The notes beneath the pieces were generated by a model. The model had not been told where the DNA came from. It saw only the letters and a program-made list of their open reading frames with translations, and ran no database searches. Position numbers and translations under genes: made by a program. Shown piece by piece: positions 14,237-37,431 of a stretch of 64,000 bases of DNA. Origin of the DNA: Candidatus Levybacteria bacterium RIFCSPHIGHO2_01_FULL_40_16 (lineage in GTDB: Bacteria; Patescibacteriota; Microgenomatia; Levybacterales; UBA12049); contig MFNS01000007.1 in NCBI GenBank assembly GCA_001783805.1, positions 1,594 to 65,593 on the forward strand, read 5' to 3'. Every line of letters begins with the position of its first letter. Within the stretch, counting starts at the first letter, position 1.

Positions 14237-14872
14237 CTATATCTTAACCTCTATGTATCTTTCCAAAATTGTTGTCCGCTTAAAATTGTTCACTGATTTT
14301 ATGGTGATTTTTGCACGTCCAGGAAAGACATTGATAGTTTTTTTAAAATTTCCATCTTTATCCAGACTTGCCGGTTCGGAGTTTATGAAAACAGTTGCGT
14401 TAGGATCAGTTTTGCCAATTACCGTGACTACTTGTGACGAGACTATAGAATTCTCCGCAGGGGCTGAAACTCTAAGCGAGGGGTTAAAAATAGCAGACCG
14501 GTACTGAAAAATTATGTAAACCAAAAGTACAATGAATATCAGGAGAAGGACTTTCAGGGTTTGCGTAATTTTAAATTTCGATAGCGAGAAATCGCTATCC
14601 TTAGTTAATCCTTCTGGAAGTACTTTTACAAATTTGTCTTCTGCATATTCCCTTTTGAAAAGAGCCAGAATTTCATGCTCCGGTAAGCCCAGGAATCTGG
14701 CATAATTCCTGACAAACCCATGAGCGTAAGTGCCTTGGGGCAATTTTTTATAATCTCCCTTTTCTATTGCTTGCAGAAAAGAAGCTCTGATTTTTGTTGC
14801 TTTAGCAACTTCATCAAGAGTTAAGCCTCTTTTGATACGTTCTTCGTAAAGCTTCTCGCCTACATGAATCAT
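14237..14872 (-). CDS. rodZ: RodZ-like protein (HTH_XRE domain + TM + C-terminal domain)
   Basis: N-terminal helix-turn-helix RGLTLDEVAKATKIRASFLQAIEKGDY, then a single TM segment and a C-terminal beta domain. Confidence 0.6.
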   Translation of the reverse strand: MIHVGEKLYEERIKRGLTLDEVAKATKIRASFLQAIEKGDYKKLPQGTYAHGFVRNYARFLGLPEHEILALFKREYAEDKFVKVLPEGLTKDSDFSLSKFKITQTLKVLLLIFIVLLVYIIFQYRSAIFNPSLRVSAPAENSIVSSQVVTVIGKTDPNATVFINSEPASLDKDGNFKKTINVFPGRAKITIKSVNNFKRTTILERYIEVKI

Positions 14873-14909
14873 ATAAAATTAAAAATTAAAAATTGAAAAT
14901 TAATAATTG

Positions 14910-17078
14910 TTACTGTTGGTGCAGAGCATTGATGATTTCATCAGCATTTTTCATCAATACATCTCTCGGCTTTGACCCCTCTGCGTGGCTCACAACTCCT
15001 GCAGCTTCCAGCTGGTCCAAAATTCTGGCCGCTCTTGAATATCCGATCGAAAGCCGTCTTTGCAAAAGCGATGCCGAAGCCCGGTCATACTGGCAAACAC
15101 TTCTGATTGCCTCTTCAAAAAGCGCATCTTTCCCATCGCTCCCGATAGATGCACCCCCCTTCTTAAGAACAAGAGGGTTAGAAAAAACTTCTTCCGTATA
15201 TTCAACCGGCGGATTTTTAGCTTTAAGGAACTCGACTAGTTTTCTTACTTCCTTGTCCGAAACAAATGCTCCCTGAATACGGGTGGGTTTAGCTTGGTCA
15301 GGCGGAATGTACAACATGTCTCCCCGCCCAAGCAGTTTTTCCGCTCCGGGGGTATCGAGAATTACCCGGGAATCAATCATGGAAGAAACATTGAAAGCAA
15401 TCCGGCAGGGAATATTTGCTTTAATTAATCCGGTTATAACGTCAACCGATGGTCTTTGTGTGGATACTACCAGATGAATTCCGGTTGCTCTGGCCATTTG
15501 AGCAAGACGGGCAACTGCATCTTCAACATCCACAGGCGCAAAAGCCATCAGATCGGCCAGCTCATCGATTAGAATTATAATGTAGGGAAGAGCTTGAAAA
15601 CCGGCTAGTTCATTGCAGGCATCGATATTTCTGACTCCCCTTTCCGCGAAAGTCTTGTATCTTCTGTCCATTTCATCCATTGCCCACCTCAAAGATTTCA
15701 AAATTTTTTCAACTTCCACAATTACCGGAGTCATCAAATGCGGTATGCCGTTATAACCGGTCAATTCTACTCTTTTCGGATCAATGAGAATTAGCCTGAC
15801 CTCTGCCGGAGAAGCTCTAAAAAGAAGGGAAGAAATAAAAGAATTAATGAGGACCGATTTTCCCGAACCGGTTGTTCCGGCAATTAAAACATGCGGCATC
15901 TTCGCAATATTGGCAACCACCGGATTACCCGAAACGTCCAGTCCTAATGAAACAGTCAGTTTGGATTTGCTTTTGTTCATCACCGAAGATTCAAGCATGG
16001 TTTTCAAAGTTACAATTTCCAAACTTCGATTGGGAATTTCTATTCCGACCAGATTTCTGCCCGGAATCGGCGCTTCAATTCTGATTTGACCGGTTGGAGC
16101 CTCGGTTCTTAAAGCCAAGTCATTGGCCAAGGCGGTAATTTTGGATAATTTTGTGCCTAAGCCCACCTCCAAAGCATATTGGGTCACTGCCGGGCCTAGA
16201 TTTACCTCAACCACCTTTGCCGTAATTGAAAAACTCTGCAAAGTCTCTTCTATTTTTGCCGCAATATCTTTGATGTTTCCCCGGTCAGCCTTTTGTGAGG
16301 TTGTCTCGGATAATAGGGAGAAAGGGGGATATTCCCAAAGGCCGGCTTTGGTCAGAGGGTTGCTGACTAGCTGATCCCCGAGAAGTGAAAATTCTTTTTT
16401 AATTGAAGATGCATTAATAATTGGAGCAGCGGTTGATAAATTTGGCAGCATCTTTGATCCGCCTTTGATCCGCATCGGATTTTCTTTAAATCCCGATTGG
16501 CGCTTGTTCTTAAAAAACCCGATGAGCCCGCTTGGAAAAAGCCGATGCAGATTTCGGAAGATGCGTTGTATAAAGGCAAAAACCTGATCCACAGAGGTGT
16601 TGAAAAAGACAATCAAACCGACCAAAACCCCTACGAAATAAATTAGATTTGCGCCAATCTCCGTCAGGGGATTCGCAATCATCCGAAAAAGTTCTCTTCC
16701 GGCTATTCCGCTACCTGTCAAAGCGGAAAGAGATATGAAGAAAAGTAAATACCCCAAGGAAACATTGAGTCCGGATAAAAATAATCTTAATTTTAAGAAC
16801 AAAAATCCAAAAAATATTAAAACGAAAGGAAAAAGGATAGCTATGCTGCCGAAATACTGCTTCAAAAGCTCACTGATGAAAATAAAAGATGTGCTGTTTT
16901 TGGTGAAAAAAGACAGAAGAAGAATTATACCTAGAACTATGAACCCAAACGCAAAAAGAGAATAAACAGTGCCCTTTTTTAGCTTTAATCTTAACTTACT
17001 TTTATGATAATGCTTTCTCCTGGCCATATGAACTATTATATACCCCTTCGTTTTCAAAATAAAAGGGGTAATGCCCAA
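14910..17078 (-). CDS. ftsK: DNA translocase FtsK/SpoIIIE
   Basis: N-terminal polytopic membrane domain; motor domain with Walker A AGTTGSGKSV and the LILIDPKRVEL block; C-terminal gamma domain. Confidence 0.9.
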   Translation of the reverse strand: MGITPFILKTKGYIIVHMARRKHYHKSKLRLKLKKGTVYSLFAFGFIVLGIILLLSFFTKNSTSFIFISELLKQYFGSIAILFPFVLIFFGFLFLKLRLFLSGLNVSLGYLLFFISLSALTGSGIAGRELFRMIANPLTEIGANLIYFVGVLVGLIVFFNTSVDQVFAFIQRIFRNLHRLFPSGLIGFFKNKRQSGFKENPMRIKGGSKMLPNLSTAAPIINASSIKKEFSLLGDQLVSNPLTKAGLWEYPPFSLLSETTSQKADRGNIKDIAAKIEETLQSFSITAKVVEVNLGPAVTQYALEVGLGTKLSKITALANDLALRTEAPTGQIRIEAPIPGRNLVGIEIPNRSLEIVTLKTMLESSVMNKSKSKLTVSLGLDVSGNPVVANIAKMPHVLIAGTTGSGKSVLINSFISSLLFRASPAEVRLILIDPKRVELTGYNGIPHLMTPVIVEVEKILKSLRWAMDEMDRRYKTFAERGVRNIDACNELAGFQALPYIIILIDELADLMAFAPVDVEDAVARLAQMARATGIHLVVSTQRPSVDVITGLIKANIPCRIAFNVSSMIDSRVILDTPGAEKLLGRGDMLYIPPDQAKPTRIQGAFVSDKEVRKLVEFLKAKNPPVEYTEEVFSNPLVLKKGGASIGSDGKDALFEEAIRSVCQYDRASASLLQRRLSIGYSRAARILDQLEAAGVVSHAEGSKPRDVLMKNADEIINALHQQ

Positions 17079-20244: not shown

Positions 20245-20285
20245 GCCCTTCAATCACGACCGGTAAAAAAGGGGGGGCGCAGATC
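20245..20285 (+). repeat. GC-rich boundary motif, copy E, extended form (cttcaatcacgaccggtaaaa + gggggggcgcagatc)
   Basis: The 5' extension is shared almost exactly with copy G at 20921-20964. It lies between divergent promoters. Confidence 0.7.
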
Positions 20286-20330
20286 AGATTTACTGACTTC
20301 GATAGAAACAATCTATATAATCCACCCATT

Positions 20331-20567
20331 ATGCCAACGAAAGAACGGCCGGCACAATGCCTACTCGGTAACGGAGAGTGCCCTAAATCGTGCGAAAATT
20401 ACGCAATGTCTAGATTGATAACTAATAAGTTGGGCGATAATTTTGACCCTTTCCTATCGAGGCTTCGGGTAATATTTGGGGATGGTTTTAGTAGAGATAT
20501 AAGGGTTGGCGACGTAGCAAATGCTTTAAAAAAGTGCATTAGCGAAAAGAAACCATCTCTATTATGA
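20331..20567 (+). CDS. small hypothetical protein (78 aa), Cys-rich N-terminus
   Basis: ORF preceded by TATATAAT (20315-20322) 9 nt upstream. Confidence 0.4.
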   Translation: MPTKERPAQCLLGNGECPKSCENYAMSRLITNKLGDNFDPFLSRLRVIFGDGFSRDIRVGDVANALKKCISEKKPSLL

Positions 20568-20646: not shown

Positions 20647-20901
20647 ATGAAAGTCAAAAAATTTGGCTTTTTAAAACCTCGAATACCCAATCTCTTACTC
20701 ACTTTTATTATTCTGTTTTTACCTTTATTTAGAGAGCAATATAACGGAGGACAATATGTAGCCTGGTACAGGCTAATCGATTTATTGATTGGTTCTTTGA
20801 GGCAGCCCGGAACCCTAGGTTTGTTTTTTCTAACGTTAGTTTTTTCCTTAATAATCTATTTTTTCGTATCGTTAGTAATTTTTAAGATAATTCAGAGGTG
20901 A
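20647..20901 (+). CDS. small hypothetical membrane protein (84 aa, 2 TM)
   Basis: ORF with two hydrophobic helices; leaderless architecture. Confidence 0.4.
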   Translation: MKVKKFGFLKPRIPNLLLTFIILFLPLFREQYNGGQYVAWYRLIDLLIGSLRQPGTLGLFFLTLVFSLIIYFFVSLVIFKIIQR

Positions 20902-20915
20902 CTCAAAACGAAAGA

Positions 20916-22580
20916 CTAAACTTCAATCACGACCGGTAAAACCAGGGGGCGGCGGCGCAGATCCTTAAAGATTCTTCTTTCCGCGACTTCTCCAATTAAT
21001 TTTCTCATATAAATCCAATTTGTCACACGGGCTTTGCGCGGATTTAAAGCTTTATGCATGTCCTGCGACAATTTGGAGCTTAGATGCTTGATGTCGTATA
21101 AAAATCCTCTGACAATAATATCCGGGGCTCCCAAAAGCTGTCCTGTTGCCGAATCTATTTCTGCGAGAACTATAATTATTCCGGCTTCTGATAATTTTTG
21201 TCTGTCCCGGAGAACAAAACTCTCCAACTCTTCTCCGGATATTTCATCCACATAAACATTTTTGGTCGGAATTGTCCTGCCCAATTTTACCTGACCGTCG
21301 ACAAACAAAAGTTCCTGCCCGTCTTCCAACAGGAAAATATCATTTTTATGATACCCCAATTTTTCTGCCAATTTTCTGTAGGCAAACATGTGTCGGTATT
21401 GTCCGCCGATAGGAATTAATTTTTTCGGTCTGACTAATTTTATTAACTGTTCCAGCTCATCCAATGATCCGTGTCCGGAAACATGAAAATCTTTGGACAC
21501 CGGGGAGTAGACAACTCTCACTCCCCTGCGGGTTAACGTATCGACTAATTCGTAAACAGAAGTTTCATTGCCGGGAATCGGATCAGAGGAAAAAACAATC
21601 ACATCTTCTTCCCGTAATTTCACATCCCTGTGTTCGCCATTGGCAATTCTGGTTAACGCGGAATTCTCCTGCCCTTGGCTTCCCGCGACAATTAAAGTTA
21701 ATTTATTATCCGCATGATTTTTCAAATTATCTATCTCCACCTCAATATCTTTTTTCAAATTAAGATATCCCAAATCTCCGGCCACTTCCCTATTCCTAAT
21801 CAGAGACCTACCGACAAAACAAATTCTTCTTCCATTATCAACAGAGGCTTTAATAATTTGATTAAGTCTGGCAATATTGGATGAGTAAGTCGTCACAATA
21901 AATTTACCTTTGCACTCTCTCATTTCGCGGTTGAAATGCTCTAGTAATCCAATGTCTGATTGCGTCCTGCCTGCTCTTTCCGCACCCAGACAATCGGATA
22001 ATAAACACATTGTTCCCTGTGACGCTAATTGCGAAATTTTTGCATAATCGGATTTTTTTCCATCAGACGGAGTGTCATCGAATTTAAAATCACTACCATG
22101 GTAAAAATTCCCAACCGGTGTTTTAATAAAAATATGCGAGGTGTCAGAAACGGAATGGGTAACGGGGATAAAGGAAAATCTAAAACTGCCGATGCTTTTT
22201 TCCGGCTCATTGAATTTAACTGTCTGCACTCTTTTTTGCGCTTTAAAATCTTTTAATTTGGCATTGGCAAAGGCCGCAGTTAAAGGAGTGGCAAAAATTG
22301 GAAAATCAGGCAGTTGGGGCAATAAAAATGGCAAAGCCCCGATATGATCTTCATGTCCATGAGTTAAAAGCATGCCAACAATTCTTTTCTTGTTCTGCTT
22401 TGCAGAATTTAGCAAATAAGAAATATCCGGCAGCAATAAATCAACTCCCAGCATAGTTTCATCGGCAAAACCAAGTCCGCAATCAACGATCAGGATTTGA
22501 TCATTGTACTCATACAGATACATGTTTTTGGTGACATTCCCAATCCCGCCAAGAGGAATAAAAGATAATTGATTATTCAT
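20916..22580 (-). CDS. rnj: ribonuclease J (beta-CASP metallo-beta-lactamase)
   Basis: HGHEDHIGALP (HxHxDH) motif and beta-CASP blocks. The C-terminal tail is read through a repeat copy. Confidence 0.85.
   Translation of the reverse strand: MNNQLSFIPLGGIGNVTKNMYLYEYNDQILIVDCGLGFADETMLGVDLLLPDISYLLNSAKQNKKRIVGMLLTHGHEDHIGALPFLLPQLPDFPIFATPLTAAFANAKLKDFKAQKRVQTVKFNEPEKSIGSFRFSFIPVTHSVSDTSHIFIKTPVGNFYHGSDFKFDDTPSDGKKSDYAKISQLASQGTMCLLSDCLGAERAGRTQSDIGLLEHFNREMRECKGKFIVTTYSSNIARLNQIIKASVDNGRRICFVGRSLIRNREVAGDLGYLNLKKDIEVEIDNLKNHADNKLTLIVAGSQGQENSALTRIANGEHRDVKLREEDVIVFSSDPIPGNETSVYELVDTLTRRGVRVVYSPVSKDFHVSGHGSLDELEQLIKLVRPKKLIPIGGQYRHMFAYRKLAEKLGYHKNDIFLLEDGQELLFVDGQVKLGRTIPTKNVYVDEISGEELESFVLRDRQKLSEAGIIIVLAEIDSATGQLLGAPDIIVRGFLYDIKHLSSKLSQDMHKALNPRKARVTNWIYMRKLIGEVAERRIFKDLRRRPLVLPVVIEV
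20921..20964 (+). repeat. GC-rich boundary motif, copy G (cttcaatcacgaccggtaaaaccagggggcggcggcgcagatcc), embedded in the 3' end of rnj
   Basis: Near-identical to copy E. On the minus strand it encodes the last 15 aa (LRRRPLVLPVVIEV) of the RNase J ORF. Confidence 0.7.
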
Positions 22581-23625
22581 TTGTTAAAAACTGTTTAATG
22601 TTTTCCGCTGTAACTTTTACGGTTTGTGTTTTCTTCTCCACAATCATCCGGGCTGCTTTTCTACAAACTCCTTCAATTGAGCGCTGAAGACTTCTGATTC
22701 CCGAATCATATCCGAGCGGCCGGATGATGGTTGGCCAAACCATATCATCAATAGAAATCTGCTCGGAGACAAGACCTGTCTGTTTTAATATTTCCGGAAA
22801 TAAATATCTTTGTGCAATTACGGTTTTTTCTTCATCCGTATAGGAGGGCATCTGAATAATTTGCAAGCGGTCAAGTACCGCGGTCGCAATATTGGTTGTG
22901 TTGTTGGCTGTGGCGATAAATAAAACTTTGGACATATCGAAAGGATAATCAACGTAATGATCGACAAAAGCTTTATTTTGTTCCGGATCCAAAAGTTCAA
23001 CTAAAACACCCATAATATCTTTTCTTCCCGTTTCGGTCACTCTGTCCAGCTCATCCAGCAAAATTACGCAATTTCTACTCCGAGCATGGATTAGGCTTTT
23101 CATCACCAGTCCCGGTTCCGCGTCCAAACTTGAGCGCGATTTTCCGCGCAAATCACTGGCGTCTCCCATTCCACCAAGCGGTATTCTTTCAAATTTCCTT
23201 CCCAGACTTTGGGCAATTGAATAAGCCAGAGTGGTTTTCCCGGTTCCGACCAGCCCGACCAGACAAATTATCGGCGAACGGGCAATATTGTTTTGATTAT
23301 GAATATTTAAAATAAGTGAAGAGAGATATTCCAAAATTACATTTTTGACACTTGGTAATCCGTAATGATTTTTATCCATAATTTCTTTGGCCTGAACAAT
23401 ATCCAGAATGTCTTTTGTTTCTTTATTGAAGGGCAAAGCCAAAATGCAATTGACGTAATTGGAGAAATTCTCAAAATTGATAAAAGAATTTTCTCCTTTA
23501 AGACTCAAGCGCAAAACGCTAATTTCTTCTTCCAATTTTTCGGCAAGATCCGCGGGTAATTGAGCTGCTTTTATTTTTTCTTCAATTTCTATGATTTTAC
23601 TTTCCAAAGGAGCATTCGAATCCAT
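22573..23625 (-). CDS. Lon-like AAA+ ATPase module lacking the N-terminal LON domain and the S16 protease domain
   Basis: KNHYGLPSVKNVILEYLS + CLVGLVGTGKTTLAYSIAQSLGRKFERIPLGGMGDASDLRGKSRSS is the Lon AAA+ core (DHYGL..VKERILEYL; GPPGVGKTSL; RGHRRTY). The ORF ends at the AAA/protease boundary and overlaps rnj by 8 nt. Confidence 0.7.
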   Translation of the reverse strand: MDSNAPLESKIIEIEEKIKAAQLPADLAEKLEEEISVLRLSLKGENSFINFENFSNYVNCILALPFNKETKDILDIVQAKEIMDKNHYGLPSVKNVILEYLSSLILNIHNQNNIARSPIICLVGLVGTGKTTLAYSIAQSLGRKFERIPLGGMGDASDLRGKSRSSLDAEPGLVMKSLIHARSRNCVILLDELDRVTETGRKDIMGVLVELLDPEQNKAFVDHYVDYPFDMSKVLFIATANNTTNIATAVLDRLQIIQMPSYTDEEKTVIAQRYLFPEILKQTGLVSEQISIDDMVWPTIIRPLGYDSGIRSLQRSIEGVCRKAARMIVEKKTQTVKVTAENIKQFLTNE

Positions 23626-23658
23626 AGCTTATATAAATTGTACAATTAAAAACAAAAA

Positions 23659-23700
23659 ATTAATAGTGGGATTTGCGGAAGTGCTAACCCGCCGGCGTAG
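23659..23700 (+). repeat. direct repeat R, copy 1 (ttaatagtgggatttgcggaag + ~16 nt partial)
   Basis: A 22/22 nt match plus an 11/16 tail with 25195-25235. It lies 34 nt upstream of the Lon-like start. Confidence 0.7.
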
Positions 23701-23812
23701 CGTAGCCTCAAGCCCACACCCGATGTGGAAAAGTGAAAATGCACGTTTTTTGGAAAAAATTATGCCGAAGAACAAAATACAAAGAATCAAAAAAAAACTA
23801 AGCTTCAAAAAA

Positions 23813-24532
23813 TTAAGCTCTATTCACTCCCGAAGAACGACCACCCAAGTCCGGATAGGAATCGCGCCGAGGCAGAAACCAATCGACGTGCAGGTAGCCA
23901 TCCGGATCGATGTAGGCGTTAATCAAATCGCTGCCACTACGAGACCCAACACGAGCCCGAGTATTTCCTTCATCTAAGTATTGTCCTTTGAAAAGTTTAC
24001 TGTCCTGACTTGCGATAAGGTATTGATTCAAGCTGAGTAATTGCCTTTTTGCCTTACCAAGTTTATTCATGAGCTCATCCACTGTTGTTTTGGTGTGCGG
24101 CGCATTGACACTAACTTCATAGTCAAACCAGCCAAATGGGTTCCCGTCATTAGCTACGCCATTGCCTTCTTGAACGCTTCTGCTTTGCATTTTGGGAAAC
24201 ATTTTACCTAGAATATGACGACTTTCCTGTGTTGCCAGAGCTGTTGGAAGATAGCCCAGCCTTAATTCCTTCTTTTCCAGATCGGCTAATTCTTCTTTTG
24301 TGAAAGGACAAGGGGTAACCTCAAATTTAATACCTGCAAGTCTTCCTCTTTCCTGCCAAATAGTCTGAAAAGTTTTGGTCACCAATTCCGGAGTTAAGGT
24401 CCCTCTCTTATGTTCCTTATTATATTCTTGAATTACAGGAGTTATTAAATCTGCAAACTGCGACGCATTTAATACGTACACTATATCTCGATTATTAAGA
24501 TGTTCCTGTGTCATAGGTTTAGTTTGTATCAC
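23813..24532 (-). CDS. hypothetical protein, paralog A of an uncharacterised family (239 aa)
   Basis: Clear similarity to 28155..28934 over the C-terminal ~150 aa (GKMFPKMQ/GQMYPKMK; NQYLIASQDSKLFKGQYLDEGN/STYILVSQARKNLTGHYLDKGS; GG-R motif). Confidence 0.5.
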   Translation of the reverse strand: MIQTKPMTQEHLNNRDIVYVLNASQFADLITPVIQEYNKEHKRGTLTPELVTKTFQTIWQERGRLAGIKFEVTPCPFTKEELADLEKKELRLGYLPTALATQESRHILGKMFPKMQSRSVQEGNGVANDGNPFGWFDYEVSVNAPHTKTTVDELMNKLGKAKRQLLSLNQYLIASQDSKLFKGQYLDEGNTRARVGSRSGSDLINAYIDPDGYLHVDWFLPRRDSYPDLGGRSSGVNRA

Positions 24533-24578
24533 AACTATAAGCTAGATGTCAAATTTTGGAGATTTAGGCAGGAGATTT

Positions 24579-24908
24579 TTATATAAATAATGCGCGGATA
24601 TTTTTAAAAACCGTGCTTCTGGTTGCTGCGGTTAACTGGCCGACGGTCTTTTTTATAATAGTCGTGTCTGCCGTAAACAGCTTATCCGGCCGCACATAAC
24701 TAATAATTGGCAGACCGCCTGTCGCAAAATCAGACTGCTTAAGACAAATTGATATTTTGCTTGTATACGGTTTTGAAGTAATTTGACACAAAATAAGGTT
24801 ATTAAATTCAACGTTTGCCAAAACAAGGGCCGGGCGCACTTTCTGACCTTTTAAATTAGAAAACGGGAATGTAACGAGAACGACACTGCCTACTGCAAAC
24901 TTGCCCAT
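24579..24908 (-). CDS. mazF: type II toxin MazF/PemK family endoribonuclease
   Basis: GSVVLVTFPFSNLKGQKVRPALVLAN...ILCQITS matches the MazF/PemK signature. The likely start is MGKFAVGS at 24908. Confidence 0.75.
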   Translation of the reverse strand: MGKFAVGSVVLVTFPFSNLKGQKVRPALVLANVEFNNLILCQITSKPYTSKISICLKQSDFATGGLPIISYVRPDKLFTADTTIIKKTVGQLTAATRSTVFKNIRALFI

Positions 24909-25129
24909 GCCTTGTCCTCCTCCGGCCGATTCCAATCGCGATCGAGTATTTTTTCTGATAACAACAGCGTATCGGCCACAGATTTATCCCGCATGGGCGC
25001 TGCAACAATTCTTATTTCACCTCTTTTTACCCGCAATTCAACTCTATCGTTAAGACCGCTTTCGTTGATTAGCGGCTTAGGTATGCGTATCCCGCGGGAG
25101 TTTCCTATTGGAATTAGTGTTGTTATCAT
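24890..25129 (-). CDS. mazE: type II antitoxin MazE/AbrB (SpoVT-AbrB domain)
   Basis: MITTLIPIGNSRGIRIPKPLI is a swapped-hairpin AbrB-type N-terminus. TTGACA-17-TACAAT lies immediately upstream (25139-25167). Confidence 0.7.
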   Translation of the reverse strand: MITTLIPIGNSRGIRIPKPLINESGLNDRVELRVKRGEIRIVAAPMRDKSVADTLLLSEKILDRDWNRPEEDKAWASLQ

Positions 25130-25194
25130 AGTAATTACATTGTACATACCAATAATGGCCTTGTCAAGTCCGAATTTGAATTTTAATGCTGAAA

Positions 25195-25235
25195 TTTAAT
25201 AGTGGGATTTGCGGAAGCGCGAACCTGCAGGTGTT
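25195..25235 (+). repeat. direct repeat R, copy 2; overlaps the last 15 codons of pnp
   Basis: ttaatagtgggatttgcggaagcgcgaacctgcaggtgt. On the minus strand it encodes ...GSTPAGSRFRKSHY* of PNPase and lies ~28 nt upstream of the mazE -35. Confidence 0.7.
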
Positions 25236-27574
25236 GATCCTAAAGACCGCCCGCCCGGAGTTCTTCTGTCTCTCCAATTGCCGGTACCCCTACTTGCTCC
25301 TTGGGAAAATCTTTCCCTGCGGAATTGTCTTGCCAACGGATGTTCCGAAGGAACAGTTCCCATTACCGGCGGAGCCATCGGAGGCTGTGGTTCCCCCTGA
25401 TTAACTACCGGCGGAATTTCTCTTTTGGGCGGAACATTTCCGCCTTCCGCTCCAAATAACATGGATAAATTTGTTCTTCCCTGATCATCAATTTCCACCA
25501 CCTTAACTTTGACTTTTTGTCCGATAGAAACCACATCCAAAGGATTGCGGACAAATCCCTCTTTCATCTTGGACACATGCACCATGCCTTCTTTGCCGGG
25601 TAAAAATTCCACAAACGCTCCAAAAGGCAATACTCTCTTAACTTCGGCTTCCTCAAAAATTTCTCCAACTTTTACTTCACGGGTTATTCCTTTAACCCAT
25701 TCTACGGCTTTGGCAACTGCATCTTTATCTGTTCCGGAAATCGTGACAATTCCGCTGTCTTCAACATCTACAGTTGCGCCGGTTGTAGCAATAATATTTT
25801 TAATTACGCGTCCCCCGGGGCCAATCACTTCGCCGATTTTGTCCACCGGAATTTGCACTTGTTCGATTTTTGGCGCATATTCTGAAACTGCTTTTTTACC
25901 CGTTCCGACAACCGCAATCATTTTTTCCAGAATAAACAAGCGTGCAACTTTGGCTTTTTCAAAAACCTCTTTAATTTGCTCAATAGTTATTCCCAAAATT
26001 TTTACATCCAGCTGAATTGCCGTAATTCCTTCGTTAGTTCCCGCAATTTTGAAATCCATGTCTCCTGAAAAATCTTCCAATCCCAAAATGTCTGTCAAAA
26101 TTACATATTTATCCTCTTTGGAAACCATGCCCATGGCAATTCCCGCCACCGGTTTTTTGATCGGGACTCCCGCATCCAGCAAAGCTAAAGTTGATCCGCA
26201 AGCTGCAGCCATTGAGGTAGAGCCATTGGAAGATAATATTTCCGAAACTACTCTGATTGTGTAAGGAAATTCCGTTTGACTTGGAATAACCGCCATGATT
26301 GCCCGTTCGCCTAAAGCTCCGTGTCCGATTTCCCGGCGTGATGTAAATCCAAATCTTCCGGTTTCTCCGACAGAATACGGAGGCATATTGTAATGATGGA
26401 TATATCTTTTGCTTTCTTCGCCTTCCGCAGATTCGATCAGCTGTTCCATGCGGGGTGAACCTAAAGTGACAATTGTCAGAGCTTGTGTATCCCCCCTATT
26501 AAAGATCGCCGAGCCATGAGTTCTAGGAAGAACCGAAACTTGGCAGGAAATCGGCCTTATTTCATCAAATTTTCTTCCATCCGGCCTAATACCCTTTATC
26601 AAAGTATTCTCTCTGATTTTTTTGAACATTACGTGCTCAATTGCATCCGCGATCATTTTTTTATCGATAACAAACTCTTCATTTTTCGCTTTTAATTCTT
26701 CAATAATTTTGTCTATAAATTCTCCGGGTTCGCCGCTTAATTCTTTGGTTAATCTGCTTTTAATCATTCCCGAAATTTCATCCAGATAAGATTTTTCCAA
26801 AAGAGCAATCAGTTCCGCATGATGGGCGTTTGGTTTTATTTCTTCCTTTTTGGTTCCTGTTTTTTTTGCAAAATCTTCAATAAAGTCAATGATCTTAGCA
26901 TTTTCAATTTGCGCTTTCTTAATTCCCTCCAGAGCTATAGTTTCTGTAACCTGATTGCTTCCCGCTTCAAGCATCAAGGTTTTATTTTTCAAACCGGTAA
27001 CAATTAAATCCAGTTCCGAAAGTTCGGATTCGACAATTCCCGGGTTAACAATAAAATCAGATCCTGAGTTTGCCGAAGGACCGTTTTCTTTTTCCTTGAC
27101 ATATCCTATGCGCACAGCTCCAACCGGGCCTTTCCAAGGAATTGGAGAAATTGTTAAAGCCGCCGAGGTCGCGACAACCGATAAAACATCCGGAGAATTT
27201 TCCCCATCAACGGATAAAATTGTTGCAATGATTTGGACTTCTTTTTTGAATTCCTTGGGGAAAAGCGGTCTGACCGAACGGTCGATCAAGCGGGCAGAAA
27301 GAACTGCGTCATCGGTTGGCCGTCCTTCTCTTTTTACCCATCTACTTCCCTTAATTCTTCCTCCGGCATACAATCTTTCAACATACTCAACTGTTAAGGG
27401 AAAATAATCAATGTCCGCTCTTTCTTTTCCCATGACTACGGTTACCAAAACCATAGTATCACCAAGCCTGGCTAAGACGGAGGATGTTGCTTGTTGGGCT
27501 AGATTTCCAACCTCCAGAGTCAATGTTTTTCCGCCGACTTCCAAAGAGGCTGTGGTTTTTTTATTTGTAGTCAT
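25196..27574 (-). CDS. pnp: polynucleotide phosphorylase with a ~90-aa GC-rich R/G/P-rich C-terminal tail
   Basis: Two RNase PH domains, KH (IGPGGRVIKNI) and S1 domains, then a low-complexity tail. Confidence 0.9.
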   Translation of the reverse strand: MTTNKKTTASLEVGGKTLTLEVGNLAQQATSSVLARLGDTMVLVTVVMGKERADIDYFPLTVEYVERLYAGGRIKGSRWVKREGRPTDDAVLSARLIDRSVRPLFPKEFKKEVQIIATILSVDGENSPDVLSVVATSAALTISPIPWKGPVGAVRIGYVKEKENGPSANSGSDFIVNPGIVESELSELDLIVTGLKNKTLMLEAGSNQVTETIALEGIKKAQIENAKIIDFIEDFAKKTGTKKEEIKPNAHHAELIALLEKSYLDEISGMIKSRLTKELSGEPGEFIDKIIEELKAKNEEFVIDKKMIADAIEHVMFKKIRENTLIKGIRPDGRKFDEIRPISCQVSVLPRTHGSAIFNRGDTQALTIVTLGSPRMEQLIESAEGEESKRYIHHYNMPPYSVGETGRFGFTSRREIGHGALGERAIMAVIPSQTEFPYTIRVVSEILSSNGSTSMAAACGSTLALLDAGVPIKKPVAGIAMGMVSKEDKYVILTDILGLEDFSGDMDFKIAGTNEGITAIQLDVKILGITIEQIKEVFEKAKVARLFILEKMIAVVGTGKKAVSEYAPKIEQVQIPVDKIGEVIGPGGRVIKNIIATTGATVDVEDSGIVTISGTDKDAVAKAVEWVKGITREVKVGEIFEEAEVKRVLPFGAFVEFLPGKEGMVHVSKMKEGFVRNPLDVVSIGQKVKVKVVEIDDQGRTNLSMLFGAEGGNVPPKREIPPVVNQGEPQPPMAPPVMGTVPSEHPLARQFRRERFSQGASRGTGNWRDRRTPGGRSLGSTPAGSRFRKSHY

Positions 27575-27576
27575 TT

Positions 27577-27954
27577 TTATTTGGTCTTCGTTGCTTTCTT
27601 TACTTTTTTAACCTTGGTTACTTTTTCCGCCTTTGGCTCGCCGGAGCTTTCAGCGGAGGTGGCTTTCTTTACTTTTCCTTGAGGCTCTTTTTCAAAACCG
27701 ATTTTTTCTTCAATTGCGGATGATCTTTTCTTGTCAACTTTGGTCAAGAAATTAATCAATCTTCTTCTTTTGGCAATCATTGATAAAAGTCCGCGCCTGC
27801 TATGAACGTCGTGAATGTGTAATTTTAAATGCTCTGTTAGCCGGTCAATTCTGGTTGTCAAAAGCGCAATCTGTACTTCCGGACTTCCTGTATCGCCGGC
27901 AACTGTCTGGAACTCCTTGATAACTTTCTTCTTTAACGTTGTACTAAGTGGCAT
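27577..27954 (-). CDS. rpsO: 30S ribosomal protein S15 with a Lys-rich C-terminal extension
   Basis: LSTTLKKKVIKEFQTVAGDTGSPEVQIALLTTRIDRLTEHLKLHIHDVHSRRGLL; 3 bp upstream of pnp. Confidence 0.9.
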   Translation of the reverse strand: MPLSTTLKKKVIKEFQTVAGDTGSPEVQIALLTTRIDRLTEHLKLHIHDVHSRRGLLSMIAKRRRLINFLTKVDKKRSSAIEEKIGFEKEPQGKVKKATSAESSGEPKAEKVTKVKKVKKATKTK

Positions 27955-28033
27955 ATAAAATAAATTAAAATTTTCAATTAGAAATTTAAAATGAAATCTA
28001 AATGTTTAAAAAATCAAACTTAAAAATTCAATG

Positions 28034-28065
28034 TCCCGAGGAATCGGGATCCCGACGATTCGGGA
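28034..28065 (-). terminator. twin tandem GC hairpins (tcccga-NNNN-tcggga x2), followed by T-rich sequence on the minus strand, downstream of paralog B
   Basis: tcccgaggaatcgggatcccgacgattcggga. The minus-strand transcript would end in a U-rich tract. Confidence 0.45.
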
Positions 28066-28154
28066 AAAATTAAAAATTTCAAATTAAAAATTAGTTAAAT
28101 GCTATTATAGCAGTTTTCTCAAACATTCTCAAGAGAGGAATTTGAAGATGTAGA

Positions 28155-28934
28155 CTAAGCTTTCTTTACTTCTTCAAAACGACCACCCGTCTTCGGATTG
28201 TGATCCTGCGGATGCAGATTAAAATAAAGAGCCAAGAAACCATCCCAACCGAATGTGGCACAGACCACATCTTCCTCGTCGTAACGAGAATCAAGCCGAG
28301 ACCATCTGGATCCCTTATCTAAATAATGTCCAGTTAAATTTTTTCTGGCTTGGGAAACAAGAATATATGTGCTTAGCGTCTGACTTGAATATCCTAGTTT
28401 TTGGGCATGTTTTTCCAGATCTTCTTGAGTAGTATTAAGATTTGGAGTAATGATAGTCGCTTCTACTTTAATCCATCCGCCTTTTTTGCTTCCATCAGGA
28501 CTATCCTGTATAAGAGTTTCTTCTCTAACTCGTCTAATTATGCCTTCCCTAATCTGTGTAATGGGACCTGCTTTAGGATCACAAAATTTCATCTTTGGAT
28601 ACATTTGTCCCAATTTGTCGAATCCTTCTTGTCCAGTAAGCTCTTGCGGAACATAAACCATCATGGAGGGGACTTTTTTACCTTTAACGCCTGTCATTGG
28701 TTTTCTTATTTCTTTTTCTGTCCAATTGCAATCCGGCACAGAAATATCCAGTCCTATTCTTTTTCCATCTGCTTGCAATTTTGCTTTCCAAAATTTAGTA
28801 ATTGCTTCTGGAGAAAAAAAATTTGTTTTAAGCTCTACTATTGATTGTATTAAATGATCCGATCCTTTTAAAAATTCTGACATATTATTTATTAAACACT
28901 TGTGGAGCCTTTGTAGATTTTGGGAGCCAGCCAA
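28155..28934 (-). CDS. hypothetical protein, paralog B of the same uncharacterised family (259 aa)
   Basis: Paralogous to 23813..24532. It occupies the rbfA/truB position between infB/DHH and rpsO, and overlaps the upstream ORF by 43 nt. Confidence 0.5.
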   Translation of the reverse strand: MAGSQNLQRLHKCLINNMSEFLKGSDHLIQSIVELKTNFFSPEAITKFWKAKLQADGKRIGLDISVPDCNWTEKEIRKPMTGVKGKKVPSMMVYVPQELTGQEGFDKLGQMYPKMKFCDPKAGPITQIREGIIRRVREETLIQDSPDGSKKGGWIKVEATIITPNLNTTQEDLEKHAQKLGYSSQTLSTYILVSQARKNLTGHYLDKGSRWSRLDSRYDEEDVVCATFGWDGFLALYFNLHPQDHNPKTGGRFEEVKKA

Positions 28935-29839
28935 TCATCCGGAGGATTATTCTCATCTCCGCCGGCTGGCGGATTTACTTCCTCTTTGGCGAAGGCGGCC
29001 TGCTTTTCTCCAACTTTTGCCTGAAACTTTGGGGAAAAAAATGCATCCGTTTGGACTTCGGGTATTAAACCGTCTTTTGTTTTTCTAACCGCACCTTTTT
29101 TCAAAAGCATTGCTGCTGTTTCAAAAGCCAATGAGCTGGTGGTGGTACTCTGGAAATTATCTGTTGCGGCAATAATACCTGCCAATAAGTTGGAAGCAAT
29201 ATCAACATCCATCTTCAAATCCAATGAGGTCAGGAAGTTTGCCATGAGCTCACAAACCGATGATGCGCTTTTACCAAGAAGTGGTATGTCTCCGAATCCC
29301 TGATTTTCAGGCTTGTAATCGATATTGATTACTCTTGAGTCTTTAAGAGTTTCCATGTCAAAAGCTGTTCCCAAATCCGATATCCGCGGTGTTCCTACAA
29401 TAAAAACCAAGCCCGGAGCTTTTCCCTCTCTTTTGTATTCAATGTCTTTCTCATTAAAAGAAAGGCCATCTTCGCCTGCTTTTACCAAAATATTTAATTT
29501 TCCTTCTTCAAGGGTATAGGAAATTTTCTCAATTTCTCCTTCTTTATACGGAAAGGTCACTGTTAGGTCTCCATTTGCACCTCCATCAAAAGATTTTTTT
29601 ACTTTGTTTATTCCAACCAAAGAAGATACTTCTACAATCGGTTCAGTTGGACAAATAACGGAAATTTCCCTATTCTCTCCTGAAAGTGCAAGATATAAAG
29701 ATAAGGCAGCGGCCATCTCATCAATACCGGGATTTTTGCCAACAGCAATACCAATACTTTCGTTTTTGGCGAGGAGGTCTTTGATCTTTTGAAGTATTAC
29801 GTTATCCATAAATTCCGACTTAAGATTTAACCATGGCAT
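28892..29839 (-). CDS. DHH/DHHA1-like protein (NrnA-like position), catalytic motifs apparently degenerate
   Basis: Position after infB and the overall NrnA-like length. A DHH motif is not evident (GKNPGIDEMAAALSLYLAL replaces DxD). Confidence 0.35.
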   Translation of the reverse strand: MPWLNLKSEFMDNVILQKIKDLLAKNESIGIAVGKNPGIDEMAAALSLYLALSGENREISVICPTEPIVEVSSLVGINKVKKSFDGGANGDLTVTFPYKEGEIEKISYTLEEGKLNILVKAGEDGLSFNEKDIEYKREGKAPGLVFIVGTPRISDLGTAFDMETLKDSRVINIDYKPENQGFGDIPLLGKSASSVCELMANFLTSLDLKMDVDIASNLLAGIIAATDNFQSTTTSSLAFETAAMLLKKGAVRKTKDGLIPEVQTDAFFSPKFQAKVGEKQAAFAKEEVNPPAGGDENNPPDDWLAPKIYKGSTSV

Positions 29840-31425: not shown

Positions 31426-31493
31426 AATATATTACTAATTTTCAATTTTAAATTTGAAATTTTCATTGAAAATTAAAAATTAAAAATTTTAAA

Positions 31494-32747
31494 TTACTTA
31501 CTCTCATCTTTTTTTTCCTTTGGAATCTCTGGAACTTCTGTTTTTATTTCCTTCGGCTCGCTCGCCTCGCTGGAGCTTTGGCGAAGCGGGTCGGAGCTCT
31601 TTGCGGAGGCGGCTTCTTTTTCCTCTTTCTTTTCTTTTTTTTCTTCAATCTTTTTTTCTTCAACCGGTTTTACTTCCTCTTTCTTAATGGTTTTGCTTGC
31701 CCCTTCGGAGTCCCGATCTAATCGGGACGCAGTAGTGTCCTCTTCGATCTCAATTCTGTAATCGGTTAATTTTGAAGCAAGTCGGACATTTTGTCCATCC
31801 CGGCCGATTGCTAAAGAAAGCTCTTCAACCGGAACAAATACGTGAGCAACTCTTTCTTGCCCTTCCGTAGCTTTAGCGGAGGAGGGTTTGTCCAATTCCA
31901 CTCTGACATTTTTTGCAGGGGACAAAGCTTGGGCAATATAATCCTTGGCATTTTCCTGCCACTGAATAATGTCGATTTTTTCAACGCCGCCGAATTCCGC
32001 AATAATTGCTTGAACCCTGACTCCCCGCTGTCCAACGCAGCTTCCAACCGGATCTATTCCCTGTTGATTTGAGAAAACAGCAATTTTACTTCTGGCTCCT
32101 GCTTCTCTGGCAATATTTTTTATAACCACACTTCCCTTGGCAACTTCCGGAACTTCTCTTTTAAATAATCCTTCCAGAAGTCCGTTATTAGCTCTTGAAA
32201 CAATAATTTCGTCCCCTTTGAGCCCGGTTCTGATTTCCGAAATATAAACAGCTACTCTTTGATTCAAATGATATTTTTCATTGGGAATTTGCTCCGGAAT
32301 CGGCATCAAAGCTTCTGTTTTTCCGACATCCACAATGATATTTGGTCCGGCAAACCGCAGGATCATGCCATTGACAATGGTTCCAACTCTTAATTTATAA
32401 TCTGCAATGATTGCTTCTTTTTCCTTTTCTCTGATTTTTTGCAAAATCACTTGTCTCGCGGTTTGGGCTGCGATTCTTCCAAAACCGGGTGGTGTTACAT
32501 CTTTTTTGCCTTTTAATATTGTTGCTTCACCGGTATTTTTGTCCAAAGTTGCGGAATATTCTTCCAATTCAACATCCGGATGGTCTTTTTTGTAAGCAGC
32601 CAGAATCGCGTTTTTGACAGTGTCCAAAACCACTTCAACGTCAACGCCCCGCTCGTTGGCGACCTGATTTAAAGCTAATAAAAATTCACTTCTTTGAACT
32701 GCCGGCATAATATTGGCTAGTATACCAGATTCAGAATCAAGCTTCAA
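31494..32747 (-). CDS. nusA: transcription termination/antitermination factor NusA with a K/E-rich tail
   Basis: S1 and tandem KH domains (GPNIIVDVGKTEALMP, VGSCVGQRGVRVQAI). Confidence 0.85.
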   Translation of the reverse strand: MKLDSESGILANIMPAVQRSEFLLALNQVANERGVDVEVVLDTVKNAILAAYKKDHPDVELEEYSATLDKNTGEATILKGKKDVTPPGFGRIAAQTARQVILQKIREKEKEAIIADYKLRVGTIVNGMILRFAGPNIIVDVGKTEALMPIPEQIPNEKYHLNQRVAVYISEIRTGLKGDEIIVSRANNGLLEGLFKREVPEVAKGSVVIKNIAREAGARSKIAVFSNQQGIDPVGSCVGQRGVRVQAIIAEFGGVEKIDIIQWQENAKDYIAQALSPAKNVRVELDKPSSAKATEGQERVAHVFVPVEELSLAIGRDGQNVRLASKLTDYRIEIEEDTTASRLDRDSEGASKTIKKEEVKPVEEKKIEEKKEKKEEKEAASAKSSDPLRQSSSEASEPKEIKTEVPEIPKEKKDESK

Positions 32748-37360: not shown

Positions 37361-37431
37361 ATTATTTTGTAATTATACAACAAACCCCGCCATGCGGGGT
37401 CATTAGAAATTAAAAATTAAAAATTAGAAAT

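Follow-up and report, generated by a model that had tools for sequence, protein, structure and literature searches.

[quoted passage not shown] Here, we analyzed a 64-kb stretch of Levybacteria DNA (the window), in which direct repeats bracket a 1.5-kb islet between pnp and a Lon-like gene (lon). The islet resembles an ILTD in that a small insert is missing in relatives, its direct repeats of tens of bases align to a single-copy target, integrase and transposase are lacking, the repeats vary in length and overlap the neighbouring gene at its 3′ end, and the cargo includes a selfish "addiction" module. However, the cargo here is mazEF and a gene related to variable proteins of diversity-generating retroelements (DGRs), whereas the known cases carry RM systems; therefore, DNA breakage by the cargo cannot be the cause here. 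Moreover, the event took place in an ultra-small CPR bacterium, different cargo has repeatedly hit one and the same gene end, and the exact repeat measures 22 nt (21–22 nt in relatives), which is under the 30-bp cut-off of Furuta et al.

The locus also recalls integrative elements and islands that target gene 3′ ends, since the repeats are the target 3′ end, the gene stays intact, a displaced copy lies at the far end, and the two copies (attL/attR) can stem from different alleles. In contrast to such elements, there is no cis integrase in the window or in related cargo, no attP element was found, the boundaries are not fixed, and the inserts are cassettes of 0.6–5 kb. A DNA transposon with target-site duplication fits poorly as well, as terminal inverted repeats and transposase are both absent. 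Homology-facilitated illegitimate recombination is described for the natural transformation of Acinetobacter, Streptococcus pneumoniae and others (PMC3240628). A one-sided homologous anchor in a conserved gene and an illegitimate far join operate without a dedicated recombinase, as we propose here, but the classical outcome is insertion with deletion of recipient DNA, whereas the join here would lie upstream of the end of the anchor and yield a duplication. Finally, hotspots of defence and accessory genes flanked by core genes hold many alternative cargos in one interval, as this locus does (toxin-antitoxin, DGRs, unknown genes). Unlike those intervals, the empty interval here is ~35 nt and overlaps the last codons of pnp and the lon promoter, so an occupied site retains two copies of the gene end.

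Results

The exact 22-mer TTAATAGTGGGATTTGCGGAAG has only two copies in the window, at 23660–23681 and 25196–25217 on the plus strand, one base off the positions given in the earlier note, which had rightly reported a direct repeat. No match with up to three mismatches was expected by chance (100 shuffles). Without gaps, the repeat spans 43 nt (23656–23698 versus 25192–25234) with 37 identical positions (86%), and local alignment of the pnp end against the 6 kb downstream scored 56 compared with a shuffle maximum of 28. Gapped alignment gave no significant support for a repeat longer than 43 nt (270 of 1000 shuffles reached the real score); judging from the cassette boundary at 23716, copy 1 probably extends over ~56 nt, to 23715. 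As the earlier note stated, the repeats bracket the gene that it called paralog A (parA, 23813–24532) and mazEF, and all genes lie on the minus strand. The islet structure was base-identical across independent assemblies from several samples; therefore, neither the repeat nor the islet is an assembly artefact. GC content and skew of the islet were not anomalous. An Rfam scan of 22000–29000 returned no relevant family, and no tRNA or tmRNA gene was detected anywhere in the 64-kb window, which ruled out a tRNA-type att site.

Copy 2 lies at the 3′ end of pnp (25196–27574, minus strand), which encodes a 792-aa PNPase with two RNase_PH domains, KH and S1 domains and an Arg-rich C-terminal tail. 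As had been noted, it encodes the C-terminus: the codons TPAGSRFRKSHY and the stop, followed by 4 nt. Copy 1 sits beside the lon promoter in the ancestral position of the pnp end, and in the pnp frame it reads ...TPAG*HFRKSHY*, with in-frame stops. Copy 1 is thus a stranded, non-coding pseudo-end of pnp, and copy 2 the end in use. The insertion had been proposed to have rewritten the PNPase C-terminus. This proved wrong, as the terminal RFRK[SPT]HY is kept in nearly all of the 120 Levybacteria PNPases listed, including those of every empty-site genome. The duplication left the C-terminus RFRKSHY intact via copy 2.

The Lon-like AAA+ ATPase (22573–23625, minus strand; 350 aa, without a protease domain) is encoded directly downstream of pnp in empty-site genomes. 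In the window, the native intergenic region with the predicted lon promoter (23626–23659, minus strand) comprises a T-rich spacer of 17 nt (23643–23659), a TACAAT −10 box (23637–23642) within the palindrome AATTGTACAATT (23636–23647), and a short leader before the ATG at 23625. The block TTTTAATTGTACAATTTA and the spacer length were invariant in ~25 lineages, and no indel was seen between the pnp terminus and TACAAT in the relatives compared. An empty site with a single repeat copy, the check that the earlier note had proposed, was found in many relatives, at more than 25 Levybacteria loci: pnp TAA, 17 nt, TACAAT and the lon ATG follow each other in L009, L011, L012, L039, L053 and ~20 metagenome loci. 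The context of copy 1 (17 nt, then TACAAT) is identical to that of the true pnp stop in these relatives, both repeat copies align to one single-copy sequence of the empty genomes, namely the pnp terminus, and the insert is missing from relatives that retain both flanks. Overall, a 1.5-kb accessory segment has entered precisely at the short boundary between pnp and lon, with target duplication. Of the earlier suggestion of an att site or target duplication, the target duplication around an insert therefore stands on these single-copy empty sites. A classical att site is unsupported, because neither the cargo nor the surrounding 10 kb contains an integrase, the repeat boundaries vary from 21 to 62 nt and the 21-mer has no match in viral contigs. 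A stretch of 26 nt 3′ of copy 2 was considered as a decayed copy of the lon promoter and dropped (~44% identity in a hand alignment of AT-rich sequence). The closest PNPase to that of the window genome is 85% identical and no same-species empty-site genome is at hand for its lineage; therefore, we infer which strain was the donor and which the recipient.

The segment consists of two cassettes, each with its own putative promoter. One encodes a putative mazE antitoxin of the AbrB/SpoVT type (24890–25147, minus strand; likely start ATG 25129, 79 aa), whose PF04014 match of 24.6 bits falls 0.1 below the cut-off of 24.7, and a MazF/PemK-family toxin (24579–24935, minus strand; PF02452, E=4e-11). 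The two genes overlap, with the antitoxin first and one predicted promoter, as in type II toxin-antitoxin systems of the MazEF/PemIK kind. The promoter (TTGACA-17-TACAAT, 25139–25167, minus strand) matches the consensus at 11 of 12 positions and forms the left end of the cassette. An identical mazE promoter and identical cassette ends were found in L010, L065, L084 and L095, in the last case at another locus without the 22-mer or the 21-mer. Its distance from the pnp stop is 2 nt in L010, ~27 nt in the window, ~32 nt in L084 and ~39 nt in L065. The mazE promoter belongs to the mazEF cassette.

The parA cassette (23716–24557, minus strand) has its own promoter with TTGACA at 24547–24552, an ORF of 239 aa (233 aa from ATG) and a conserved 3′ flank of ~100 nt ending in ...ACATCGGGTGT at 23716; its ends reappear at a different locus in L091/L092. 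The parA homologues P0137 and P0131 have variable-repeat/template-repeat (VR/TR) pairs of 118–127 nt with a reverse transcriptase (RT) downstream, and their VR/TR mismatches fall at TR adenines (17/17 and 19/20, respectively). A VR with a TR and a nearby RT thus accompanies both homologues, whereas neither TR nor RT for parA was found within the 64-kb window. By homology only, parA appears to be an orphan homologue of DGR variable proteins. Its closest non-self homologue is 69% identical and sits at another locus. NCBIfam, PADLOC and PHROGs scans returned nothing for parA and parB, and BLASTP detected no kinship of parA with the cargo proteins L065_262, L066_204, L069_260, L080_244 and L038_333. 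Integrase, transposase and other mobile-element genes were found neither in the cargo nor within 10 kb by Pfam, NCBIfam, PADLOC and PHROGs (the 10-kb neighbourhood was judged for integrase and transposase by the Pfam marks on genes).

The 21-bp pnp terminus TTCCGCAAAYCCCACTATTAA was invariant at 17 of 18 positions across nine lineages, which were chosen independently of the pattern, and was unique in this among the gene's 2524 windows. No other run of six codons in pnp has every third position invariant (base rate 11%), and this synonymous-site invariance starts exactly at −21. The last 21 nt of pnp are therefore under constraint at the nucleotide level and probably form part of the lon upstream region. 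Two observations count against a lon promoter element: TATTAA, at its 3′ end, matches a −35 box poorly, and in L014, L064 and L076 a MITE-like insert lies between the 21-mer and the −10 box. Searches for the 21-mer found no match among 2.9 million viral contigs and 37 matches in metagenomes, every one at a pnp end or a lon-side relic; they revealed no free attP-bearing element.

Among relatives, the pnp–lon slot holds at least nine cargo types, and none contains an integrase. A pnp-end relic accompanies four of the cargo types, with lengths of 21, 22, 43 and 62 nt: 21 nt in L080/L078, 22 nt in L059/L073 and 62 nt, of a different sequence, in L038. The left boundaries lie at −22 (exact core in the window), −22 (L059/L073) and −21 (L080), while the right boundaries vary. 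Compared with the ILTD repeat length (>30 bp, variable), the window repeat measures 43 nt at 86% identity with an exact core of 22 nt, and duplications in relatives measure 21, 22 and 62 nt at pnp and 41–57 nt at rnj and UbiA. In L010, a possible decayed copy of the pnp end next to the right junction was not significant.

The window contains a second case. The functional 3′ end of rnj (20921–20962, minus strand) is duplicated 673 nt downstream as a relic (20248–20289, minus strand; 81% identity), which is followed by a Phd/YefM promoter. This relic (42–45 nt) carries synonymous variants specific to the window genome, and the repeats flank a 0.63-kb insert with two small ORFs on the opposite strand. 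No terminal inverted repeats were found at the pnp islet or the rnj islet. Further gene-end duplications were found at rnj in L010 (54–57 nt) and at UbiA in L093 (41 nt); thus, the pnp, rnj and UbiA ends share the same duplication signature despite their unrelated sequences. No duplication was seen behind the DHH stop, where parB was inserted; therefore, not all insertions here leave a relic.

Discussion

We propose, with a probability of about 0.6, that the islet arose by an ILTD event in which a related Levybacteria strain supplied the segment through a homologous join in pnp and an illegitimate join on the right. The assignment to ILTD follows from the lack of a recombinase and from the recurrence of the signature with other cargo and at other gene ends, and homology-anchored import is the most likely mechanism that we infer. 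DNA from the donor strain would have joined on the left by homologous recombination within pnp and on the right by an illegitimate join some tens of bases 5′ of the recipient pnp stop. As a result, pnp would be served by the donor end, and the recipient's own end would be stranded as a relic. With intergenic spacers of ~35 nt, such an outcome would spare both the upstream gene and the downstream promoter. Short relics would be retained, as homologous recombination could not delete repeats of this size efficiently. No relic at the pnp–lon site falls below 21 nt, likely because the last 21 nt of pnp carry a nucleotide-level element, a putative part of the lon upstream region.

Several observations speak for this import. 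The L010 rnj relic has an intact frame, with six of its eight differences at third codon positions and TAA changed to TGA, and the TPAG codons of the window pnp relic differ from copy 2 at third positions only. Read at the level of codons, these two relics point to two alleles rather than in-situ copying. L065 and L083 belong to the same species (96–97% nucleotide identity) and differ by a 3381-nt insert in place of 44 nt; homology resumes 10 nt inside lon, and the start of lon was replaced without a relic. Additionally, the PNPase P0002 is identical to that of the window from residue 684 to the end and ~80% identical upstream, although a chimeric assembly is possible. The import model leaves unexplained why every cargo left junction reads TAA|A.

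That A is among the observations that would suit a site-specific recombinase encoded elsewhere and acting in trans, for which the 21–22-bp pnp terminus would serve as the attachment core and core-cargo-core would result. Such a recombinase would also account for a left boundary almost common to three cargo types, for a 21-mer whose synonymous invariance begins exactly at −21, and for cassettes with discrete ends that are seen at other loci. Moreover, two independent relic ends 1 nt apart (−21 and −22) also fit a defined recombination core. We nonetheless consider this unlikely. Integrase is absent from all of the at least nine cargo types and within 10 kb of the window islet, the 21-mer has no viral-contig match, and all 37 metagenome matches fall at pnp ends or lon-side relics. 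The repeat differs in length between cargos and, in L038, in sequence, and the signature is also seen at the rnj and UbiA ends, which are unrelated in sequence. No arrays of cargo with cores in between were found, and the L065/L083 polymorphism within one species replaced the start of lon without leaving a relic. It is similarly doubtful that the 21-bp terminus is a dedicated landing site at which trans-acting machinery repeatedly captures promoter-bearing cassettes in an integron-like manner. Under this reading, toxin-antitoxin modules, DGR modules and genes of unknown function would be captured without a cis-encoded integrase, and the platform would occupy the final seven codons of an essential gene, the same bases doubling as lon upstream sequence.

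A transposition-like event with very long and variable staggered cuts of the IS1634/IS1549 type, with the transposase acting in trans or lost, would yield host-derived direct repeats of variable length, and it is in keeping with the synonymous variants that the window rnj relic shares with its own genome. However, both islets lack terminal inverted repeats, the cargo lacks a transposase, and in the L010 rnj and window pnp relics most departures from the working copies are synonymous, which makes this explanation quite improbable. We find it very hard to believe that the islet is ancestral and that the empty sites of relatives are deletions between direct repeats. Such repeats would allow precise deletion, and related mazEF cassettes occupy the same slot in L010, L084 and L065, but pnp and lon adjoin without an insert in the majority of close lineages as well as in distant ones (64–70% PNPase identity), and sampling suggests that occupied sites are scattered tips inside empty-site clades. 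The many unrelated cargos in the slot and the location of the nearest non-self parA homologue, 69% identical, at another locus also argue against an ancestral islet, and a duplication event would still be required to make the repeats. The least credible explanation is an operator common to the mazE and lon promoters, as the earlier note had suggested in placing both copies ~30 nt upstream of a TACAAT box. Each copy does lie upstream of such a box, and the 21-mer is constrained at the nucleotide level, but the actual distances are unequal (17 nt for copy 1 and 51 nt for copy 2). The mazE promoter is the cassette's own, occurs without the repeat in L095 and elsewhere lies 2 to ~39 nt from the pnp stop, and copy 2 is merely the pnp end, present in every genome with or without cargo. 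This suggestion is thus extremely unlikely.

CPR bacteria have tiny, tightly packed genomes with few recognisable mobile elements, and accessory gene gain is poorly understood in them for this reason. If homology-anchored import is correct, the pnp–lon locus would represent a recombinase-free route by which small, self-promoted cassettes are placed between core genes that run in the same direction. Insertion would cost a short duplicated gene end, while the upstream C-terminus and the downstream promoter would both be preserved. A literature search returned no previous description of a pnp–lon hotspot in CPR. The signature is seen repeatedly, both at this junction with different cargo and at further gene ends within ~1 Mb of related sequence; therefore, gene-end relics could mark recent gene gain genome-wide in such genomes. 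Our reading would also extend ILTD past RM systems, and ILTD with non-RM cargo argues that the mechanism is host-driven rather than cargo-driven. A dif/Xer-like site and a sigma-32-like promoter were also considered, but the likeness is weak. Additionally, the comparison singles out 21 nt of pnp as constrained at the nucleotide level.

An insertion scar between pnp and lon

Within the 64-kb window, the 22-mer TTAATAGTGGGATTTGCGGAAG has just two exact copies, at 23660-23681 and 25196-25217, and shuffled sequences gave an expectation of zero matches, even with up to 3 mismatches. The ungapped repeat reaches 43 nt (23656-23698 against 25192-25234, identity 37/43), and when the final 120 nt of pnp were aligned locally with the next 6 kb, the score was 56, compared with a shuffle maximum of 28. 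All genes of the region lie on the minus strand: rnj (20916-22580), the Lon-like AAA+ gene (lon, 22573-23625), parA (23813-24532), mazF (24579-24935), mazE (24890-25147), pnp (25196-27574) and rpsO (27577-27954). On the coding strand, copy 2 of the repeat closes the pnp ORF with …TPAGSRFRKSHY*. Copy 1, beside lon, reads …TPAG*HFRKSHY* in the pnp frame, a pseudo-terminus with in-frame stops, and is followed by TTTTTTGTTTTTAATTG-TACAAT-…ATG of lon. The PNPase homologues place the organism in Candidatus Levybacteria (CPR/Microgenomates).

In five relatives with PNPases 83-85% identical to that of the window (L009, L011, L012, L039 and L053), after the true pnp stop come the same spacer of 17 nt, the same TACAAT box and the lon start, with a pnp-lon gap of 34-35 nt overall. 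Additionally, a metagenome scan with the 21-nt pnp end found 37 loci, about 21 of which have this empty arrangement. Therefore, the adjacency of pnp and lon is ancestral, and the 1.5-kb segment (mazEF and parA) was inserted. The islet stretch was found on contigs from several independent samples, and the four contigs compared across it are identical except for one SNP, in L004; thus, an assembly artefact does not explain the structure. We consider the islet a well-supported insertion scar, and the proposal of the earlier note that direct repeats bracket an inserted module is borne out by these single-copy sites. Its claim that the insertion rewrote the PNPase C-terminus was wrong, as of the 120 PNPase homologues listed, nearly all, and among them those of every empty-site genome, end in RFRK[SPT]HY. 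The duplication kept the C-terminus: copy 1 is the stranded pnp end at its original position and copy 2 the end now used by pnp.

Constraint on the duplicated gene end

Nine lineages, found independently of the motif, were used to count conservation along pnp. Of 2524 windows of 18 nt in the gene, that of the last 18 coding nucleotides shows the highest conservation, a level reached by no other (17/18 positions invariant), and it is the only six-codon run in which no third position varies (base rate, 11%). Across these lineages, synonymous sites are invariant within the 21 nt TTCCGCAAAYCCCACTATTAA (25196-25216; relic, 23660-23680). The constraint begins exactly at -21, as the preceding CGY codon is variable, and the shortest relics coincide with this point. 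Among the inspected loci with an empty site or a relic, the 17 nt that lead to TACAAT are free of indels. At the rnj terminus, unlike the pnp end, synonymous sites vary freely. The simplest reading is that the lon upstream region overlaps the pnp end. However, the putative -35 box is poor, and in L014, L064 and L076 a MITE-like insert parts the two blocks. This element of about 150 nt (L014, ~12345-12495; same site in L064 and L076) sits within the lon promoter, between the T-rich spacer and the -10 box, and has terminal inverted repeats (…CCACTTCGCATT … AATGCGAAGGGG…). The 21-nt end may also have an att-like role. The lon -10 box itself is held in a perfect 12-bp palindrome, AATTGTACAATT (23636-23647); this possible operator is unchanged across about 25 lineages.

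Recurrent cargo at pnp-lon and relics at other gene ends

The pnp-lon junction is a slot used repeatedly, with different cargo in related genomes. L010 and L084 carry mazEF alone (the L084 contig stops within mazF); L062/L065/L082, mazEF with a complete diversity-generating retroelement (DGR); L055/L059/L073/L075, a DUF6922 protein and an AbiEii-type nucleotidyltransferase; L072, a DUF5678 pair; and L046, on sequence inspection, a RelBE-like pair. Unknown proteins of 244, 204, 260 and 333 aa are encoded in L080/L078, L066, L069 and L038, respectively, and L022 has a parA-like gene with a 214-aa ORF that by look is a candidate IS200/RAYT-type transposase. A pnp-end relic adjoins the native lon promoter in the window (43 nt), in L059 and L073 (22 nt) and in L080/L078 (21 nt); that of L038 is 62 nt, of different terminal sequence. 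In L010, L065, L066 and L069, where no pnp-end relic is seen, the native lon promoter block was replaced too. L065 and L083 belong to the same species (96-97% nucleotide identity); the 3381-nt insert of L065 replaces 44 nt, and homology restarts 10 nt inside lon. This 3.4-kb islet (L065, 1341-4721; also L062 and L082) is a same-species presence/absence polymorphism of the slot relative to L083/L039, and holds mazEF and a DGR composed of a 262-aa target, a 113-nt template repeat (TR) with adenine-specific mismatches, bAvd and a reverse transcriptase (RT). At all cargo left junctions (the window, L010, L038, L059, L065, L066, L069, L072, L080 and L084), the first base after the pnp TAA stop is A, compared with T at standard empty sites.

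The ends of rnj and UbiA bear the same signature as pnp. In the window, the rnj gene closes with 42-45 nt (20921-20962) that are repeated 673 nt downstream at 20248-20289; between the copies lies a 0.63-kb insert that has two small ORFs on the opposite strand (20331-20567 and 20647-20901). This relic has synonymous variants specific to the window genome, and after it come a perfect TTGACA-17-TATAAT promoter and the gene of a Phd/YefM antitoxin. Comparison of 1.02 Mb of fetched loci against itself yielded two further gene-end relic cases. In L010, an rnj relic of 54-57 nt (15911-15968 against 21352-21409) flanks 5.4 kb of cargo with a DUF2079-like gene and ORFs of 584 and 615 aa. Its frame is open (IFKDLRRHPLVLPVVIEV*), 6/8 differences fall at third codon positions and the stop is changed from TAA to TGA; therefore, the two copies derive from two functional alleles. 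In L093/L094, the UbiA 3′ end is duplicated over 41 nt (8097-8136 and 8850-8889) around an AbrB/PIN toxin-antitoxin pair, and the inner copy has a frameshift.

The mazEF and parA cassettes

MazF belongs to the PemK/MazF toxins (PF02452, E=4e-11), its partner MazE is an antitoxin of AbrB type, and the mazEF promoter, TTGACA-17-TACAAT, is near consensus. The parA product had no match in Pfam, NCBIfam, PADLOC or PHROGs scans. Among its homologues, P0137 (Curtissbacteria) and P0131 are genuine variable proteins of DGRs, with a 3′ variable repeat paired with a downstream TR of 118-127 nt, then an RT; mismatches between the repeats fall at TR adenines in 17/17 and 19/20 cases, respectively. The 64-kb window has no TR or RT for parA, which is thus an orphan of this family. 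Both cassettes have discrete ends and recur at unrelated loci. The mazEF cassette, also in L095, spans its own -35 box to AAATCTCCRAAAA; the parA cassette, also in L091/L092, spans AAAATTTGACAT to …ACATCGGGTGT, ending about 100 nt past the stop. With the parA cassette ending at 23716, the pnp relic would start at 23715 (about 56 nt), of which 43 nt have statistical support. A paralogue, parB (28155-28934), is 28% identical to parA; apart from these two, their family consists of DGR variable proteins, and the window likewise has no TR or RT for parB. It lies directly 3′ of the stop of a DHH-family gene and before the rpsO promoter, without target duplication, at the same position as in L039/L085 and L064.

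Mechanism of insertion

The event was an insertion without mobility genes that duplicated tens of bases of its target in direct orientation, and it recurs with repeats of variable length. This matches insertion with long target duplication (ILTD), a class known from complexes of restriction-modification (RM) genes, chiefly of naturally competent species, in which the repeats overlap the 3′ ends of genes (Furuta et al. 2010, PMC2853133). We regard the islet as a case of ILTD with three modest new points, namely its non-RM cargo, its CPR host and the repeated targeting of one dual-constrained gene end.

A recombinase acting in trans on the 21-mer as core would account for the shared -21/-22 boundary and the A after the stop at cargo junctions. 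However, this is unlikely: no integrase lies in the islet or up to 10 kb from it, no free element or cargo arrays were found, repeat lengths vary, and the targets at rnj, UbiA and L038 are unrelated in sequence. Transposition with long staggered cuts is somewhat less probable again, since the islet has no terminal inverted repeats and, over the same 10-kb surroundings, no transposase. That the islet is ancestral and was deleted in relatives is at odds with the distribution of empty sites and highly improbable. We give even less credence to the repeat as an operator shared by the mazE and lon promoters, an earlier suggestion that failed because the position of the mazE promoter varies and it also occurs independently of the repeat.

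For insertion with target duplication, three observations suggest that homologous recombination in flanking genes moves islets: the L065/L083 polymorphism, the TPAG codons, which differ between relic and working copy at third positions only, and P0002. This PNPase is about 80% identical to that of the window over residues 1-683 and 100% over 684-792, and in P0121, from the same cluster, the tail differs; P0002 is a mosaic formed by recombination or else an assembly chimera. Import of the islet would be anchored by homology, with the left crossover inside pnp and an illegitimate right join shortly before the pnp stop of the recipient. With spacers of about 35 nt, such an outcome would harm neither neighbour gene. 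Short relics would persist, being poor substrates for deletion.

Neighbouring features

Beyond the S1 domain, the PNPase of Levybacteria continues into a long C-terminal extension rich in Arg, Gly and Pro (25196-25460, residues ~705-792), in which conserved islands (HPLxRQFRRER, NWRDRR and terminal RFRKxHY) are separated by hypervariable stretches. The Lon-like protein (350 aa) comprises the AAA+ and lid module only, matching Lon residues ~254-574 without the protease domain, and its gene overlaps rnj by 8 nt. An A/T-rich motif, …AATTAAAAATTAAAAATT…, is repeated intergenically at 14869-14915, 27961-27993, 28060-28092, 31463-31495 and 37400-37432, directly before or after several core genes (rpsO, infB, dnaK/dnaJ).
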